Part shown: positions 680 to 8,936 of the stretch, in pieces | Layout of the letters: each line of letters opens with the position of its first letter | Numbering within the stretch: the stretch's first letter is position 1 | From: Mayamaea pseudoterrestris | Taxonomy: Eukaryota | Assembly (NCBI GenBank): GCA_027923505.1 | Contig: BROI01000008.1 | Location: 248,001 to 312,000, forward strand | Direction of reading: 5' to 3' | DNA length: 64,000 bases | Program-made: the position numbers and the translations under genes | The notes under the pieces: model-generated | The model's database searches: none | What the model was told of the DNA's origin: nothing | Seen by the model: only the letters and a program-made list of their open reading frames with translations

Positions 680-3073
680 ATGGCACGAACGAGTCGCAAC
701 CCCGTGGCAAGCAGCATGGACGCGCTCGACAATATCGATCTTGATGACATGTTTGCCGATGAGGGAGACGCTCTTTTCGATGGCCTAGACATTGATCTCG
801 GCAATATGGACGATATTACCGGAGCTGCGAGTGTCAACGATGACAACGACCTACCGATGACAGCGCCACTGCACGAGCAACAAACTCCGTCACAGGATGA
901 CAATACTCGCCGACGCATAAACAAGCGAAAAATAAAGTCTCCTTCATGTTTTGACGATGACGAGGAAGAACTTAATGGCTCTATCAAGAAGAAAACGCCC
1001 AAGAAGCGCCAGACAAAGGCAGCTAATTCTTCAAAAAAGGGAAAAGCCAATGGTCCTACCGCCGCAGTTCAAACAGCTGTCGCCCCTCCTATCATCATTC
1101 CTGACCCGATTTCTGTAAAAAGCAAGAAGACAAAGTCTACTATGTCAACGACCTTGCCGCATCCGTCGCAGAGGGGCATTGTTGCTGCTGCCGGACAATT
1201 CGGTGGTAGAAACAAACGAGGATCGTATGTACTTCCAAAAGCAGCTCCTGTCACGCAGAAAATGAAGCCAATAGCAGGCCCTCCGACGCTAGCTAGAGCC
1301 TCTTCAATGGAAGGAGTAATTAAGATCCAGCCGCAGCACCCATTGTCTCGGGCTGACATTATGGCGCGGATATACGCGACGCATCCTGGTTTGCAACAAG
1401 GCAATTTCTGCGGATTACTCCCGAGCAACACTATCTTTTATCCATTCATGCCTACACTTCCAAACGAACCCTCGCTTAAACAACGCAAGCTCTTTCCCGT
1501 AATTGACCGCATCCACACATCGTTTTTGGCGTCTGTTGGAAGCTCATCCGTTTCTGCAGTTGACAAAACGACATCACCAACATCTAGTGATACGCATCAA
1601 ATACATCCTATCGTCGCCTTGATGCAAGATTGCTACAAGGATGAAAAAACACCTGCTATGGGCGCCGATTCAATAGAGGTCAATCAGCAGTCGGAAAGAG
1701 CAACCGTGCTCGTTGCGGCGGCGAACGAAACTAGACGGACTGTGTCGCTTTTCGACAAGCATCAGCTTGCAGGTGATCTCATGGCAGTTTGCTCATTGCT
1801 TAAGCGTCAGCATGATTTTTTAAGGCAAAACAAGTCAAATATGGAGCAGTGGTGCAAGAGTCATTTTACCGAGGAAGACTATGCGTGCGTCTTTTTGCCA
1901 ATAAAGCCAAAGATCAAGCGAAAAGCTGGTGACATGACAGGTGGCAGCGTATTGGCGTCCTTTACCAAGAACCAGATTAAGGTCAAGATAATATGCAGCA
2001 ACTTCGACAAAATCTCGTCAGGCCCCCTATATGCGACGCTTCGCTTCGGCGTCAAAGCATCGGACAAGGATGTTGCTCCGCCCAAATCCAAAAAGGCGAA
2101 GCTAAACCCATCCAGTGTGAAGGGCGGTGTCACCGCCAGAACCAGCTTTGCGGCTTCCATCAAAAATATATCTAAATCGCTGGTGCCCTATGCGGATATG
2201 AAGCCGTCTCATCGTCGTAAAACAATCGTCGATCTCATAAACAAGTGTGCGCGAGATCTCGAGGCCACGGCTGGCCAGCAAATGGAGGACCAGCGTCAAA
2301 TAATTTGTCGTCAGCAAACTGAGCTGCAAAAGGTTGTTGATGATGATAAGGTACAAATGATACATTCAACGTGCATGTGGCGCTGGCTTGAAAAGTCGGG
2401 GCACTTTGCGAAGATGAAGGATGCAGATTGTCAGTGGCGACTGGAAGGTCTTGCGGCGACGAAACTTGGCGATATTGAATGCGGCCACGCTTGCATGCAG
2501 CAAACTACGTTGCCTTTTGGCAACAGAAAGGCAGGAAGCTACATTCATCGACTGCAGTCGTTGCTTGTGGTTGATGACGACGATGAGACCAGCGACGACG
2601 AATCCGACAATCACTTTGATGACATGCCTTGTGCATGTCCAGCAGCTGATCTCTCGAAACTGACAATGCATGAGCGGAGCTTTTTACACTTGCGTTCGTT
2701 TGATTTAGTTCAGAAGGCAGATCATATATTTGCCGTCGAGGATCATATGACCACAGATATTTCTCAAACTGTTCGCTTCGACAATGCCCAAGATATTGCA
2801 GACTTGGAACCGAAGGACGAAGTCGATGGCGTTGTTAATGCGATGATTTGTGACTTGCTTCAAGTGGACGAATGCAACAGCATGAGAGCAAAGCTTCTCA
2901 AATCAGTCGTTCATTCGCAGCGCGTAGCTGAGAGCGATCTGAAGGCGAAGAACGCGGAAACCAGCGTGATCTCAAGATATTATCAGCTAATGAAAAAGAA
3001 TAAGCAAGAAAGGGGGAGAAATGAAGGTAAGCCCAGGGTGGCAAAAAATGACGAGTACGCATTGCCCTGGTGA
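680..3073 (+). CDS. Hypothetical nuclear protein (acidic N-terminus, Lys-rich NLS-like segments; C-terminus faintly ADA3-like)
   Basis: 809-codon ORF; first ATG at 680 (MARTSRN). Low-complexity acidic and basic tracts. Confidence 0.75.
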   Translation: MARTSRNPVASSMDALDNIDLDDMFADEGDALFDGLDIDLGNMDDITGAASVNDDNDLPMTAPLHEQQTPSQDDNTRRRINKRKIKSPSCFDDDEEELNGSIKKKTPKKRQTKAANSSKKGKANGPTAAVQTAVAPPIIIPDPISVKSKKTKSTMSTTLPHPSQRGIVAAAGQFGGRNKRGSYVLPKAAPVTQKMKPIAGPPTLARASSMEGVIKIQPQHPLSRADIMARIYATHPGLQQGNFCGLLPSNTIFYPFMPTLPNEPSLKQRKLFPVIDRIHTSFLASVGSSSVSAVDKTTSPTSSDTHQIHPIVALMQDCYKDEKTPAMGADSIEVNQQSERATVLVAAANETRRTVSLFDKHQLAGDLMAVCSLLKRQHDFLRQNKSNMEQWCKSHFTEEDYACVFLPIKPKIKRKAGDMTGGSVLASFTKNQIKVKIICSNFDKISSGPLYATLRFGVKASDKDVAPPKSKKAKLNPSSVKGGVTARTSFAASIKNISKSLVPYADMKPSHRRKTIVDLINKCARDLEATAGQQMEDQRQIICRQQTELQKVVDDDKVQMIHSTCMWRWLEKSGHFAKMKDADCQWRLEGLAATKLGDIECGHACMQQTTLPFGNRKAGSYIHRLQSLLVVDDDDETSDDESDNHFDDMPCACPAADLSKLTMHERSFLHLRSFDLVQKADHIFAVEDHMTTDISQTVRFDNAQDIADLEPKDEVDGVVNAMICDLLQVDECNSMRAKLLKSVVHSQRVAESDLKAKNAETSVISRYYQLMKKNKQERGRNEGKPRVAKNDEYALPW

Positions 3074-3157
3074 GACAACAGCAATTAGACTACTGCAAAA
3101 TTAAACATTGAAATAGAAATGGTTCATACTATATTGTCTAGTATTGTGGATAATAAG

Positions 3158-6100
3158 CTAGTTAAACTGCGACGGAAAAACACCGCCGTGACTCCCTGAA
3201 TGAGTAGACGATGATTTATTTCCATTGATTCCCATCAAGCTGATTGCTTCAATATCTACATCAGACCCTATGCCATTGCTTTGAAAGAGACCCATGTCAA
3301 GACTGTTCAGCATTCCAGAGACGAGGTCAACGTCGTTCGTCTGGTCCTCATCAACATCATCGACCAAATCAAACAATCGACCGCGGCGAGGTGCACGTGC
3401 AGTTAACTCACTTGCCGGCGGAAATGACGTCGATCCCATGGAACGTCCGCCAACGAAGCCATTAAAGCCAGCGCGAAGGGGCTCCGGCGAGACAGCTGAA
3501 ATGCCTTCGAAGTAGGAATTGGATGGAGGGTGCGGAGATTCCCGAGCATGTCCGGAAAAATCACCAGAGAAACCGATCGGCGAGACCATGCGATTGTCAA
3601 TGCGAGGAAGGGGAGGCGTCATCGTCGAAAAAGAACTTATAGTTCGAGACAGCACAGCGCGACTGCATCCAAAACGTACTTTTCCAGCGGGATTTTGTAA
3701 AAGAACTAGTAGAGAATTGGTCGGGGAGACGTAATGAGCACCGGTGCCTGTAAGGCGGTAAAAGTGCTGGCCTGCGCGTAAACATTCCACGTGCTGGACG
3801 AACAATTGACCAGCAGGCTCACCAAGCCTAGGGTCAAGCAAGTTAAGATCACTTAACGAAGGACCGCAGTGGTTGGAAGGGAAGCATTCAGCAGGCAAGA
3901 TCACAAGAAATGAAAGCGGGACGTTCGTCGAGCTAGAGGATGTCATCAGATCAAACATGACTTTGACGTATTGCGAAGCTATCATGCTGTCCAGAGGTGG
4001 GACGACAGACAGTGCGCCGCCCCGCAAAGCGAGAATATGCTCCGATTCACTCCCTTGCTTCCCAAAAGGTTCATGACCGCCAAAAATTCGATCAACGTCA
4101 ATCAACTTCCCCCAAAATGAGCTGCCATCTACAATCGACAAAGGCTCTGACCACAGCTGCGCCGAAATAAAGGCCTCGGCGCACAATACCTTTTGCGACG
4201 TTGTTGTCAATCCAATGTCTAGGGATGTGCCGTCTGCAATAAAACCGAGCGTCTCATACCAAATTTTGGTCACATATGCAGCTGTTAAGAACCTTGTTTT
4301 CCGTCCGACATGACGAATTCGGAGAGCGTGTAACACGTTTGACGATACCTTCACTGAAGAACGCTTGGCCCAAGTGAGAGAAACAAATGTTTCGCGATCT
4401 TGAACGTATTCTTCTGCCGTCATACCGATATCTGCATCAGACCAACCCACCGACAGATTGCGGGAGACTTGCTGCTGGAGTCGCTGGACGTCCTCGGCCA
4501 ATCTGACACAAAGAGATGCAACAGCAGCCCCAGCATCTTTTAAAGCCTCCATGTTGGCTGATGATCCAGTCCGCCGTGTTTCAGAAATAAATTGACGCTG
4601 AAAGTTTCCAACAAGACTGTCGAAATCTTTCCAGCTCGGAACTAGAGGGTCAACATACGGTGACGAGTCATGGGCCGCTCTGATGATCCAACGATACATG
4701 ACTCGCTTCACAATGTGCTCACCAACCACGCTTGCCAACGACTTGCACCGATGAAGCATTTCGGCAACCTTTTCACGTCGAAACAAAGCAACTGCAGGAT
4801 GCTCTACGTGGTCAACAGGTAGTTTGGGAGTCTCTGTTGCTATATTTCCTGCTGTTGCAATGGTGTTCTTGTCCGAAATATTGATTTTGCCTGACGATGA
4901 AGCAGGCGGCGCTGGTGGCGACGCTGAAGTAGCAACCGAGGCATTATCGGCTGCAATTGATTGAGGCAGAGCGGGTGTTAACTGCTCTTTGAAGTTGCTT
5001 GTAGGTTGAACAGGGTTGGTCTCCCATCGTCGGCCGACAGGTGCAATATCCTTTGAAATCAAACTCGTTGCTCTTTTAAGCTCGGTTACAGGTTTCTTAA
5101 TGCTGTTATTAAGCGCTATCCCATTCTGCATCGCTTTCGGCGACTTGCTTCGTCTATCGGACAGATCCGGACTGGTGCTGGGTGATGTGGAAGCATCGCT
5201 TTTTTTCTGTTTCGTCAGCTCTCTCTCGCGACGTTCTCGTTCCTCTCGTTTCGCTAGCTGTACTCTCTCTCGTTCTATTGCTTCCTTCATTTCGCGCTCG
5301 CGTTGTTCCTTCAACTTTATCGCTTGCTCACGTCGCTGCTGCTCTTCCTTTTCTTTACGGACACGCTCGCGCTCGCGTGCTTGGATCTCTTCTTGCTCCC
5401 GACGCTCCTTTTCTTCTTTCAGTTTCTGTAAACGCTCTTTTTCCCTCTTCTTACGTTTCTTGTCGCGTTTTGAATTGGCTTCCTTCTCGTCCTTCTTGGC
5501 TTGCAGTTCTTCAAGTTCAAGTTCCTTCAACAAAGCTTCCTCGGCGACGCGCGCTTTCTCTTCCGCCGCTTGTTTAGACTCCCCGCGACTATTCTTCTTT
5601 TTGTTTTTAGTTATAATTACAGCTTTGTCTCCGTCGGCGTCATGTTGAGGAGTTAACGATGGATTTTCTTCCTCGTCCGTTTCGTCGTCGTCGCTTCGTT
5701 CCGAAAACTTCCGACCATCCTTCTCCATCTGTTTAATGCGCAGATTAATGAGTAGACGCGCCCGTTGACGTTTTTTCCCGTCACGGGAGCATCGCGGTAT
5801 GCTAGCATTGTAAATTGTTACCATCTCGACAGCAGCATCAATAAGGTTCTGTTCCACAAGAATCGAGAGAGCCGTGTCACCCTTCTTTGTCGTCACATTA
5901 TGATCGGCACCATGTTCCAAGAGTAATTCAACTGTATCAGGTAAACCCTTCGTTGCCGCCTGGAGCAACGCGCTGAGCGTCGGATCGTCTTCTTCTGTGG
6001 GCGCGTTCGCGTTCAAAAGTAAGCGTACGACATCATCATGGCCTTTGTAGGCAGCAATGCTCAATGGAGACCAGCCAGTATCAGTACATTTGCAAGGGTC

Positions 6101-7612
6101 CGCACCAGCCTTTAAAAGCGCATCGACAGCACCCGACTGTCCGTGGTTCGCTGCTGTCAAAAGTGGTGTTTCTCTCCACTTGTTCAAAGCATGTACGTCA
6201 GCATCATTGTCAAGAAGTAGCTTCACAGCCGCCAGGTGTCCAGGTTTTGATCCGGCACAAGCTTTGTGTAAAGGCGTGCTATTATCTTCGGTTACTCGCG
6301 TATTGACTGGCGCATCAGCTTTTAAAAGCAGCGCAACGATGTCATCGTAACCCTACCAAGCAAAGAAGCGCGTGAGTCGACGCGTCGAAGCAGACATTAC
6401 ATGCGCTACGCTTGTATCTGTACAAACCTTGTGTGCCGCAAACGTCAGCGCGCTCCAACCAGCTTCGCTACACAAGCTTGGATCGGCCTTGTGTGCAAGC
6501 AGTGCATCTACCGCATCCAAATGACCATTATTCGCAGCAATGAGCAAGGGTGTTTCGCGCCACTTATTGCAGGCATTGCCGTCTGCACCCTGCTGCAATA
6601 ACAAAAGCAATACCTTCATAGATCCTTTTTTGTTCGTCGCATTCGAAGAACAAGCGGTATGAAGCGGTGTATACAAGTCGTCCTTGAACTGGCAATTAAC
6701 CGACGCCCCCTGATCAAGGCAAAGTTTGACAGCAGCCGCATCGCCATCCTCAACAGCGCACTTCAAATAAAGCTCAGCATCCTCCTCGTCGATGCTCACC
6801 GATGATGACTTCACCGTCACCGACGCTCGTACAGTTAATGAATCATTACTCACAAATCCTTCCTGCTGAATCCGATCCGACGTTATAAACTGCGACCATC
6901 CCCAGTCGATCGCCTTGGGACAAAGTTTAAACGTTTTATCTGGATTGCGCTTTGCGTAACTTAGCGCTGCATTTTCCGGATGCTCTAAAGTAAGTACGTA
7001 GCTGACAGCCTTTTTCCACCCAAATGGCAGAGCTTCCGCATCTGCAACTTGTAGAAAGAGACTCAAATGATGATTGGAGGCTCGTCCGTTGCCATTGACG
7101 TAAATGATCAGCCGCCACTTATTGCCGTGTTCGTCCGTCGTTGTTTCCGAGTATTCCGCCTTTTTACAGCCAGACTCTCGTTTGCTGGCATAGTCTTTAA
7201 TGTAATGAGTGAATTCGCAAGTTGTTTGCATATTTTGTGGTTTCCAAGTGACAGTATCGGGTGCTGCTTCAATGGCATGATCCGTTCCGTCATCGTCCAA
7301 ATGTTGCGGCGTCTTCTGTGCAGAGTTCGTCTCGTCCACATCAGTCTTTTTGCTACTATTGCCGGCAATATCAGTGATCGTTTTACTGCCACTGGTAGCA
7401 TTTTCATTGCTCGTCGTCACAACATCTTCCAATCTTTCATGATGACGCGGAAAGTGCGGATTTTTGCTGGAAGTGTTGGTTTCATCATCTCCGGGAAGGA
7501 TATAATTAGTCGATGTCGAGTCCGGCTCATCATCATCCGCATCCTGCGATGATCGCTGACGAAGAATAGAGTCTTGGTCGTTGTTGTTACTCGTGGTACG
7601 CCACGACATCAT
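3158..7612 (-). CDS. MATH domain + ankyrin repeats + coiled coil + PCIF1/CAPAM-like methyltransferase-fold protein
   Basis: Joins ORFs 6353-7660 and 3158-6226 through a GT-AG intron at 6353-6427 (AAHK|GYDDIVALLL). MATH: KWRLIIYVNGNG...HLSLFL...DWGWSQFI. Multiple ankyrin TPL/SPL motifs and an E/K/R coiled coil. The C-terminus resembles PCIF1 (HPAVALFR, YRWII...DPLVP, PLSFLVILP, LLQNPAG). The start is uncertain because there is an acceptor-like TTTTACAG near 7650. Confidence 0.85.
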
Positions 7613-8285
7613 GCTGTTGGGCGTCGGCGTGTCTTCAGGAGTCGTTGCTGTAAAAAGCAATTTTGTTTCGAGTGAGAAACTACGCTAGCAACCAGGAGCA
7701 AGGGCCATCCATGGTACATTCGCGAACGCTTAACTTTCAACTACTCAAGTAAGCGTCCATTATATAGGATCAAACAGTTGCGAGACGTGTCATTCCAATG
7801 GGTGGCGCCCACATGCAGCAGAACCAATCGGTTTTCGGACAAACCTTCTCAATTCAAGCAAAAGTACTCTTTCCTCGTTCCTTCCACTTACGTTGATTTC
7901 TTATCTTTCCTCCTCGCGACTAGGTAGTAGACTACTTATAGACTTGTGTTTCCCGTTGAATGTTCAGTGACTCGGTCGCTCACCCCGAGACCATTAAACG
8001 GCTTGCGTGTCCAGCCAAGGAAAAACGAACTTCATCGCAAGGTCATCCTCGCATCATCGTCACCGATCGTGGAAAGTTAAGGTTACTGGGTCGTGGTACG
8101 ACACTGTAGACTCCCGCTATGACACAGAAACGGTTACGTTATTGAGTCGTGTTTGGAACGGAGCGACCATCAACTTTGTCGACCTTCACCCATCAGCAGT
8201 CACACGTTGCACCACACATATCTTTCCTGTTTCCCTTTACTGTTAATCGTCAACCCGAGCATCAGACACATAGGTACTCGCCACG

Positions 8286-8936
8286 ATGAATACAACAGCA
8301 GCACTGAGTCATGACGCCTGTATCACTAATGGTCAGTGCTTGAACGGCGGCACTTGTGCATCGGCCGACGAACACTCAGCCTATCGACACTGCGAATGTC
8401 CCGATGGTTTCACAGGTCTTCGATGTCAAGACTTTTGTCCGTTAGATTGTCAAAATAATGGAGTCTGCCAATCAACGAGTACGTCGAATAGGATTGAGGA
8501 TTATATTCACGACAGCAACAAGCGAAGCAGCAGCATCAACAATTTCACATGCAAATGCAAGGGATACTTTACCGGCAAGCTTTGCCAGACGCGATACGTC
8601 AATTGCGGGGGACATCAATGTTTCAATGGGGCAAAGTGTGCGGCAATTGAGTCTGCTGGAGTTGGAAAATGGTGCGAGTGCGCCGACGGATACAGTGGCG
8701 ACCTATGTCAGTCTCGCGCAGCATTTGATGAGTCTATTAAGAAAAAGGCGAACGCGAGTGGAGCCGTAATGGGTGTGGTCATAGTTACAACCATTTTTGT
8801 CATTATATGCTGGAGGAGAAGGACGCGGCAGGACAAGCGCCTTTGTTCACAGCACACCTTTGAGGAACGCCAAAATTTGCACGTTTCTGTTCCGCGTGAG
8901 GAACGAGACGACTGGGAATGTAGAAACATTGTATAG
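8286..8936 (+). CDS. EGF-like repeat single-pass membrane protein
   Basis: Three EGF motifs (CLNGGTC...CECPDGFTGLRC; CQNNGVC...CKCKGYFTGKLC; CFNGAKC...CECADGYSGDLC), then a TM helix AVMGVVIVTTIFVIICW followed by RRR. Confidence 0.85.
   Translation: MNTTAALSHDACITNGQCLNGGTCASADEHSAYRHCECPDGFTGLRCQDFCPLDCQNNGVCQSTSTSNRIEDYIHDSNKRSSSINNFTCKCKGYFTGKLCQTRYVNCGGHQCFNGAKCAAIESAGVGKWCECADGYSGDLCQSRAAFDESIKKKANASGAVMGVVIVTTIFVIICWRRRTRQDKRLCSQHTFEERQNLHVSVPREERDDWECRNIV

Follow-up and report, generated by a model that had tools for sequence, protein, structure and literature searches.

A diatom MATH-ankyrin protein carrying a degenerate PCIF1/CAPAM-type methyltransferase domain

A 64,000-nucleotide stretch of the diatom Mayamaea pseudoterrestris (contig BROI01000008.1, positions 248,001 to 312,000 of the forward strand; hereafter the window, whose coordinates are used throughout) was analyzed around a minus-strand gene whose product joins a MATH domain and ankyrin repeats to a C-terminal domain of the PCIF1/CAPAM type. 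Two minus-strand open reading frames (ORFs; 6353..7660 and 3158..6226 in the ORF list) are linked by splicing into a coding sequence of 7612..6428 plus 6352..3161, encoding 1459 amino acids (aa), with the stop codon at 3158-3160. The first ATG, at 7612, is preceded by an in-frame TAG. The coding intron (6427..6353, 75 nt, GT..AG) lies within the ankyrin array, and its removal fuses '...AAHK' to 'GYDDIVALLL...', which restores a regular ankyrin repeat. An earlier reading made from the letters alone (the sequence-only reading) had ended the protein at 3660; the frame extends 160 aa further, to 3161, and this extension contains a conserved tail motif.

Transcript evidence was taken from contigs of four sequencing runs (X1-X4), all of one study, that cover the stretch. 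The X1 contig (51.8 kb) retains the 75-nt intron and X1 is therefore genomic. In each of X2, X3 and X4, a contig omits exactly 75 bases, bounded by GT and AG on the minus strand, with the frame kept; record 6 of X3 (4515 letters) covers 3148..7647 and so spans the whole ORF with the intron removed. Loose ends of the X2, X3 and X4 contigs past 7647 (62-98 nt) place uniquely at 7892-7921, from which a second intron (7648..7891, 244 nt, GT..AG) follows in the 5' untranslated region (UTR), downstream of a non-coding exon of which at least 30 nt at the 3' end (7892..7921) were verified. The X2-X4 contigs behave as cDNA, and the locus is one expressed, spliced, three-exon diatom gene. The joining of the two ORFs across 6353-6427 in the sequence-only reading was borne out in these contigs, and separate transcripts were not seen.

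The encoded protein begins with a T/D/S-rich region (aa 1-133, 7214..7612 including the start codon) that is poorly conserved (21% identity in the family). It is followed by a MATH (TRAF-C-like) domain (aa 134-267, 6812..7213), matched by Pfam MATH_2 at 78.1 bits (cut-off 32; 1e-21) and by MATH at 46.8 bits (cut-off 21.2). The best PDB sequence matches of this domain were TRAF4, TRAF5, TRAF1, TRAF3 and TRAF2, all weak (E 1.5e-5). About eight to nine ankyrin repeats, counted by eye, occupy 5828..6778 and are split by the coding intron; on the two exon products Pfam Ank_2 scored 86.1 and 59 bits and Ank 82.6 and 50.1 bits, all above threshold. Within the array a three-repeat unit is duplicated (NKWRETPLL...GWS.L..AA.KG occurs twice, at 6428-6560 and 6080-6230 on the minus strand), and the coding intron separates the two copies. 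No WW family was found on either exon product by Pfam at E up to 1, and no BTB, RING or USP domain was found in the protein by Pfam scan.

Downstream of the ankyrin repeats lies an E/K/R-rich segment (5177..5575) with K/R clusters that resemble a nuclear localization signal. Charged residues make up 63% of it and hydrophobic ones 12.8%; in the best register, hydrophobic residues fill only 26% of the heptad a/d positions. From this composition a single alpha-helix or charged linker is more likely than the coiled coil named in the sequence-only reading. A poorly conserved S/A/P-rich low-complexity linker (4841..5176) leads to the PCIF1/CAPAM-type region, which comprises a helical domain (4226..4813) that carries the motif RW...DPLxPS and most of the conserved basic residues, and a Rossmann methyltransferase-like domain (3638..4225) with a degenerate active site. 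Structural alignment (model residues 3-401) and hhalign (from residue 48) cover the former, and profiles and fold comparison identify the latter.

The protein ends in a disordered tail (3161..3637) with no Pfam match. Its short motifs RRGRLF.LVDD ... SGML..L ... DVDIEAISLMGI (window 3203-3391, minus strand) hardly vary within the diatom family; from their acidic-hydrophobic pattern they may be docking motifs. In an AF2 model of domain plus tail, residues 409-560 had predicted local distance difference test (pLDDT) values below 50 and the tail was not packed onto the PCIF1-like domain. A complex prediction of the Seminavis MATH-ankyrin region (105-595) with the tail (1435-1516) returned a score of 0.00; it was run without controls and carries no weight either way. 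Two other readings of the whole protein were considered and rejected: a SPOP-like Cullin-3 adaptor, as Pfam finds no BTB domain, and a TRAF-like trimer, as the charged helix stands well downstream of MATH and shows no heptad pattern.

Vertebrate PCIF1/CAPAM is the cap-specific writer of N6,2'-O-dimethyladenosine (m6Am; PDB 6IRV-6IS0). Several methods concur that the C-terminal domain is a true homologue of this enzyme at the level of sequence profiles and predicted fold, with the helical and the methyltransferase lobes both present, as the sequence-only reading had supposed. The sole Pfam match of the C-terminal 401 aa was PF12237 (E 3e-6), a family whose name (PCIF1_WW) is misleading; PMC7641849 identifies it with the CAPAM-like methyltransferase rather than with a WW domain. 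Some orthologues exceed its threshold (P0079, 37.2 bits), and a precomputed PF12237 match is on record for 29 of 48 homologues. A profile of 12 family sequences, containing no canonical PCIF1, was searched against 177,635 PDB sequences and matched only 6IRX (3.6e-12) and 6IRV (7.7e-9); addition of two bridging relatives improved the PDB PCIF1 match to 4.3e-29. Alignment by hhalign to 14 canonical PCIF1 sequences (WW-bearing forms and those of Trypanosoma, Paratrimastix and Monocercomonoides) gave 99.7% probability and E 8e-26 over 330 columns. Queried as a single sequence with phmmer, the domain matched no PDB chain, so that PCIF1 is reachable only through profiles and fold comparison.

The domain was modeled with AF2 from 29 family sequences (mean pLDDT 92.6). 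Foldseek against the PDB placed CAPAM in all of the top six matches (E 3.1e-14 to 6.5e-13, TM score 0.63-0.66), with the seventh match at E 3e-3. VIA-align gave Z 30.2-31.0 to 6IRY, 6IRZ, 6IRV, 6IRW and 6IRX, and Z 7.3 to the next unrelated chain; the best superposition had a root-mean-square deviation of 3.6 A over 344 residues (model 3-401 on zebrafish CAPAM 193-669). All 30 ESM Atlas feature matches carry PF12237, and the top nine BFVD matches are giant-virus PCIF1-like proteins. The motifs listed in the sequence-only reading are present in the order given there (HPAVAL, YRWI, DPLVP, DRIFG, PLSF, HFY and LLQN, with VPPL at 4003..3992), with one reservation: HP.V.L.R occurs in the sequence, but as a PCIF1 motif it falls outside the hhalign alignment, which starts at domain residue 48.

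The catalytic motif of PCIF1 is replaced. VPPL (3992..4003, minus strand) stands opposite NPPF or NPPY in BLAST, hidden Markov model (HMM) and profile-profile alignments alike, as had been noticed from the letters. Adenine-N6 methyltransferases are stated to follow the rule [DNSH]PP[YFW] after strand 4, and the PCIF1 mutants APPA and SPPG are given as inactive, in bioRxiv 10.1101/485862; PMC9178792 gives the single mutant N553A as inactive too. The motif was surveyed in the 113 family members that cover it, aligned to the family HMM. None of the 113 fits [DNSH]PP[YFW], and position 1 is never D, N, S or H (L in 51, V in 25, F in 14, M in 12, I in 8, and T, C and Y in 1 each), so that the loss of Asn and Phe proposed for this protein is family-wide. 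Position 3 is Pro in 103/113, position 4 is aromatic in 13/113, and the residue directly after the motif is D or E in 111/113. Among 13 PCIF1-like proteins from outside the family, nine have NPPF or NPPY, one has NPTF and three, from a single cluster, have HPPA.

Outside the motif, the comparison took in the 40 columns at which 12 or more of the 14 canonical sequences agree. Eighteen are kept here and 23 in the family consensus; those kept include the DxD, FG, PF, GG(S), PP, PLSF and LQN positions, and those lost include the equivalents of N323, S320, S342, S345, F347, D348 (to K), E357 (to A/S), N359 and F362. The substrate-loop H-x-[FY] and LLQN are retained. Given VPPL together with the lost canonical residues, adenine-N6 methylation by this domain is very unlikely, and the view of it as a pseudoenzyme, which comes from these alignments, is well supported.

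Two further observations concern the same domain. Departures from residues common to the family and canonical PCIF1 occur in this protein at domain residues W194 (R to W), Q228 (E to Q) and L246 (F to L), encoded at about 4259, 4157 and 4103 on the minus strand; Leu246 is common to the three closest homologues. In a long-branched subclade of the family (P0050, P0088, P0118 and P0126) the motif proline is lost too (LTGS, LTGC, VTGN); some diatoms may have this subclade as a second paralogue.

Contacts of PCIF1 with 7-methylguanosine (m7G) are listed, in human numbering, as R235, E558, W588, P591 and P592 in PMC13290413. The equivalent of R235 (Arg in the human 'NRW') is R50 of the domain, and R50-W51 (YRW) is nearly invariant in the family. 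E558 is aligned with Ser or Asn, adjoining the conserved D/E. The W588/P591/P592 loop could not be aligned; a conserved, family-specific stretch 13 residues longer, CF..D....PS..DL..LDPRLG, stands in its place. Of the 16 columns occupied by K or R in at least 80% of members, 13 lie in the helical domain, R50 among them. The helical domain may plausibly serve to bind nucleic acid, and specificity for the cap is conjectural.

The search for relatives retrieved 48 homologues and 74 representatives. All named members are diatoms: Seminavis robusta, a Bacillariaceae sp., Stauroneis constricta, Thalassionema frauenfeldii, Cyclotella atomus, Thalassiosira profunda, Skeletonema potamos and another Skeletonema. 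MATH, Ank and PF12237 are combined in one protein in 15/48 homologues, including transcriptome ORFs marked 'type:complete', and the architecture occurs in both pennates and centrics; its conservation in other diatoms had been named as a check in the sequence-only reading. Many other homologues are about 1020-1125 aa long, are without MATH and resemble gene calls of exon 2 only. In databases these proteins stand as 'ankyrin repeat protein', 'ankyrin 3' or 'hypothetical'; the intron is where many of the entries are cut short.

Thirty family members, chosen from 93, and 36 other sequences were placed in a tree based on the methyltransferase lobe. The family formed a single split (Shimodaira-Hasegawa-like approximate likelihood ratio test 100%) on a long stem branch (0.97 + 0.40); since the tree is unrooted, the donor lineage cannot be named. 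In a single-sequence search of 1.84 billion representatives the only out-of-family matches were P0113 and P0116, of a group of DCD-fused PCIF1-like proteins. The diatom Ditylum brightwellii belongs to an NPPF-bearing DCD-fused PCIF1-like cluster, from which it follows that at least some diatoms have a potentially active paralogue. No second PCIF1-like copy was found in the 64-kb window by tblastn with six PCIF1-like proteins, which returned only this locus. Protist relatives with NPPF or NPPY (P0133-P0137, P0139 and P0178) are fused to DCD and NYN/PIN RNase domains, and P0178 combines WW, PF03291 (cap guanine-N7 methyltransferase), glycosyltransferase families and PF12237.

Conservation of each module was computed across 21 full-length family members. 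Mean identity was 85.5% for MATH (96/148 columns invariant), 85.4% for the ankyrin repeats (205/326), 41.3% for the PCIF1-like domain (16/196 in the helical lobe and 7/190 in the methyltransferase lobe), 58.2% for the tail motifs (7/60) and 20-31% for the linkers. By this comparison of sequences the MATH-ankyrin part is under the strongest selection, and of the folded parts the once catalytic lobe is under the weakest constraint. The family-specific motifs LDPRLG, DWTD and MExLKEAG are conserved in the PCIF1-like domain. Literature searches returned no paper describing a MATH-ankyrin-PCIF1 architecture and no relevant paper on PCIF1 in diatoms, MATH plus ankyrin in diatoms, or m6Am in Phaeodactylum.

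Neighboring features were noted on the plus strand. The spliced contigs terminate at 3147/3148, about 10 nt past the stop codon, and a convergent 797-aa ORF (680-3073), in which no Pfam family was found, has its stop at 3073, so that the 3' ends of the two genes lie within about 85 nt. On the other side, the product of an ORF at 8286-8936 is small and rich in cysteine, has EGF-like repeats and bears a hydrophobic segment at its C terminus.

We consider that the gene probably encodes a non-catalytic PCIF1 paralogue, kept as a binding module on a MATH-ankyrin platform. The PCIF1-like module would be a pseudo-methyltransferase that is unable to methylate adenine N6 and whose conserved basic helical domain most plausibly engages the 5' end of RNA or some other nucleic acid. 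The charged helix, if rigid, would tether this module to the MATH-ankyrin platform, which would in turn recruit conserved protein partners, probably in the nucleus.

Several observations weigh against this account. The residues D248, D250, F253, G254, F259, G274-G275 and P282 are nearly invariant and common to active PCIF1; with these residues of the motif I/II type kept, the domain may still bind S-adenosylmethionine (SAM) or carry out other chemistry. For SAM binding the residues point both ways: D248, D250, F253 and G254 are retained, and the equivalents of N323, S342, S345, D348 and E357 are gone. Four of the five published cap contacts have no recognizable conservation in the sequence alignment, where the R235 equivalent alone is clear, and the domain overall is not basic (mean net charge +2 for the helical lobe and -8 for the methyltransferase lobe). 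For this protein alone, the PF12237 score (27.4 bits) is below the gathering score (31.1). Between the run contigs there are 20 coding differences; 3 non-synonymous and 0 synonymous ones fall in the PCIF1-like domain, and 2 and 7 in the MATH-ankyrin region, all very small numbers. Among the three in the PCIF1-like domain, G1153D alters the FG motif (C>T at window 4080, plus strand); contigs of X1 and X3 have it, at a Gly that is invariant in 14/14 canonical PCIF1 sequences and present in 11/12 family members. The PCIF1-like domain may thus be weakly constrained in this species, as judged from these alleles. Finally, the runs that show splicing carry no RNA label on record and come from a single study.

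Three other explanations were weighed against a kept, non-catalytic binding module. If the domain were still an enzyme, it would bind SAM and methylate a substrate other than adenine N6 (a different position on a base, a ribose-independent target or a protein), to which its hydrophobic x-x-P-x loop would be adapted. The near-invariant residues shared with active PCIF1 (D248, D250, F253, G254, F259, G274 and P282), the acidic residue after the motif in 111/113 members and a Rossmann domain confidently predicted to be intact speak for this. They are set against the replacement of eight further canonical-invariant polar or aromatic residues (D348 to K and E357 to A/S among them), a methyltransferase lobe that is the least conserved folded part of the protein (7/190 invariant columns) and the G-to-D allele within the FG motif, and we regard continued catalysis as quite improbable. 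A ligandless vestige, serving as spacer or folding unit while function resides in the MATH-ankyrin region and the tail motifs, would account for the gap in identity (about 85% for MATH and Ank vs 41% for the PCIF1-like domain), for the ratios of non-synonymous to synonymous differences given above, small as those numbers are, and for the remodeled cap-contact loop. Pennates and centrics both have the domain, however, with its two lobes intact and pLDDT above 90, and the 16 conserved basic columns together with LDPRLG, DWTD and MExLKEAG are unexpected for a mere spacer; a vestige therefore seems rather unlikely.

The remaining explanation is an artefact, in which neighboring MATH-ankyrin and ankyrin-PCIF1-like genes were wrongly joined across 6353-6427. 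The many relatives called at about 1020-1125 aa without MATH might be cited in its favor, although intron-unaware gene callers would give the same result. The exact, in-frame absence of the 75-nt intron from contigs of 3/4 runs (one contig spanning 3148..7647), the regular ankyrin repeat that the splice restores and the 15/48 homologues that combine the three families leave it practically no likelihood.

A bolder version of the non-catalytic binding module can be set out, in which a writer has turned reader: the dead CAPAM module would recognize the state of the RNA 5' end (cap or first nucleotide) and, by way of the charged helix, pass the RNA to partners of the MATH-ankyrin platform. We hold this only tentatively and on balance doubt it. 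In a variant drawn by analogy, the protein may act as a METTL14-like non-catalytic partner of an NPPF-bearing DCD-PCIF1 paralogue. The sequence-only reading had suggested a cap-binding adaptor, possibly one that couples capped RNA to ubiquitin/MATH partners. Its cap-binding half is conjecture, given that of the five contacts only the R235 equivalent is clearly conserved; its ubiquitin half is not borne out, there being no BTB, RING or USP domain and the nearest solved MATH domains being those of TRAF-C type. If the writer has indeed turned reader, a diatom-specific pathway would link the identity of the mRNA 5' end to a decision at the protein level.

What is new here is the domain context of a catalytically degenerate PCIF1 paralogue that occurs throughout the phylum. 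Diatoms, a phylum of great ecological weight, retain a PCIF1 copy that by its residues should be unable to act as an m6Am writer, joined to an interaction module that is about 85% identical between centric and pennate diatoms. The family offers a natural system, beside insect Pcif1 and METTL14, for the roles of non-catalytic RNA-methyltransferase folds, and the true architecture of the gene affects the annotation of diatom proteins now labeled as ankyrin proteins.

Canonical PCIF1 binds the Ser5-phosphorylated C-terminal domain (CTD) of RNA polymerase II (Pol II) through an N-terminal WW domain. With vertebrate PCIF1/CAPAM the diatom protein shares the predicted two-lobe fold, helical plus Rossmann (Z 31), and the motifs RW..DPLxPS, DxDxxFG, PLSF, H-x-[YF] and LQN..G. 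It differs in having VPPL for NPPF and several invariant pocket residues replaced, in the longer family-specific loop that takes the place of the W588/P591/P592 cap loop, and in its other domains, there being no WW but a MATH domain, ankyrin repeats, a charged helix and a conserved tail. It had been proposed that MATH and ankyrin repeats replaced WW; the absence of the one and the presence of the others stand, but replacement is not supported, the nearest sequence relatives being DCD-fused and not WW-fused.

By sequence, no proteins stand closer to the diatom domain than these DCD-fused CAPAM-like proteins of protists (e.g. the Ditylum brightwellii 'DCD domain-containing protein' of the P0139 cluster), but nine of the 13 examined keep NPPF or NPPY, and the domains joined to them are DCD, in some cases together with NYN/PIN RNase domains, rather than MATH-ankyrin. 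Recombination of the PCIF1 module with non-WW domains is also described for choanoflagellate eTudor-DCD-CAPAM proteins, in PMC7641849. The MATH domain, above the Pfam threshold, is of the fold family of TRAF4 and other TRAF-C/MATH proteins, but here it is not preceded by a RING, zinc finger or TRAF-N coiled coil, nor is it accompanied by a BTB as in SPOP.

Degenerate methyltransferase-like proteins are known from other lineages, insect Pcif1 and METTL14 being the nearest analogues in function. The DIRS1 retrotransposon has a domain derived from PCIF1 that is reported as inactive owing to substitutions at catalytic and substrate-binding positions (PMC4738411); unlike the diatom domain, it is embedded in a transposon polyprotein. 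A domesticated DIRS1 origin found no sign in the Pfam lists of the relatives, which contain no reverse transcriptase or recombinase, this being an indirect comparison. METTL14 has EPPL instead of DPPW and is reported to serve RNA binding and scaffolding (PMC8287941). As in the diatom family, the fold is kept although the motif no longer has its catalytic D/N and its aromatic residue, but METTL14 belongs to the MT-A70 clade and is an obligate heterodimer with its active paralogue METTL3. Insect Pcif1 is likewise a PCIF1 homologue with a naturally mutated catalytic motif, the Drosophila protein being retained in a non-catalytic gene-regulatory role according to PMC10158991. The fly protein is an orthologue that keeps WW and the link to the Pol II CTD, whereas the diatom protein has neither and belongs to a separate, long-branched clade.

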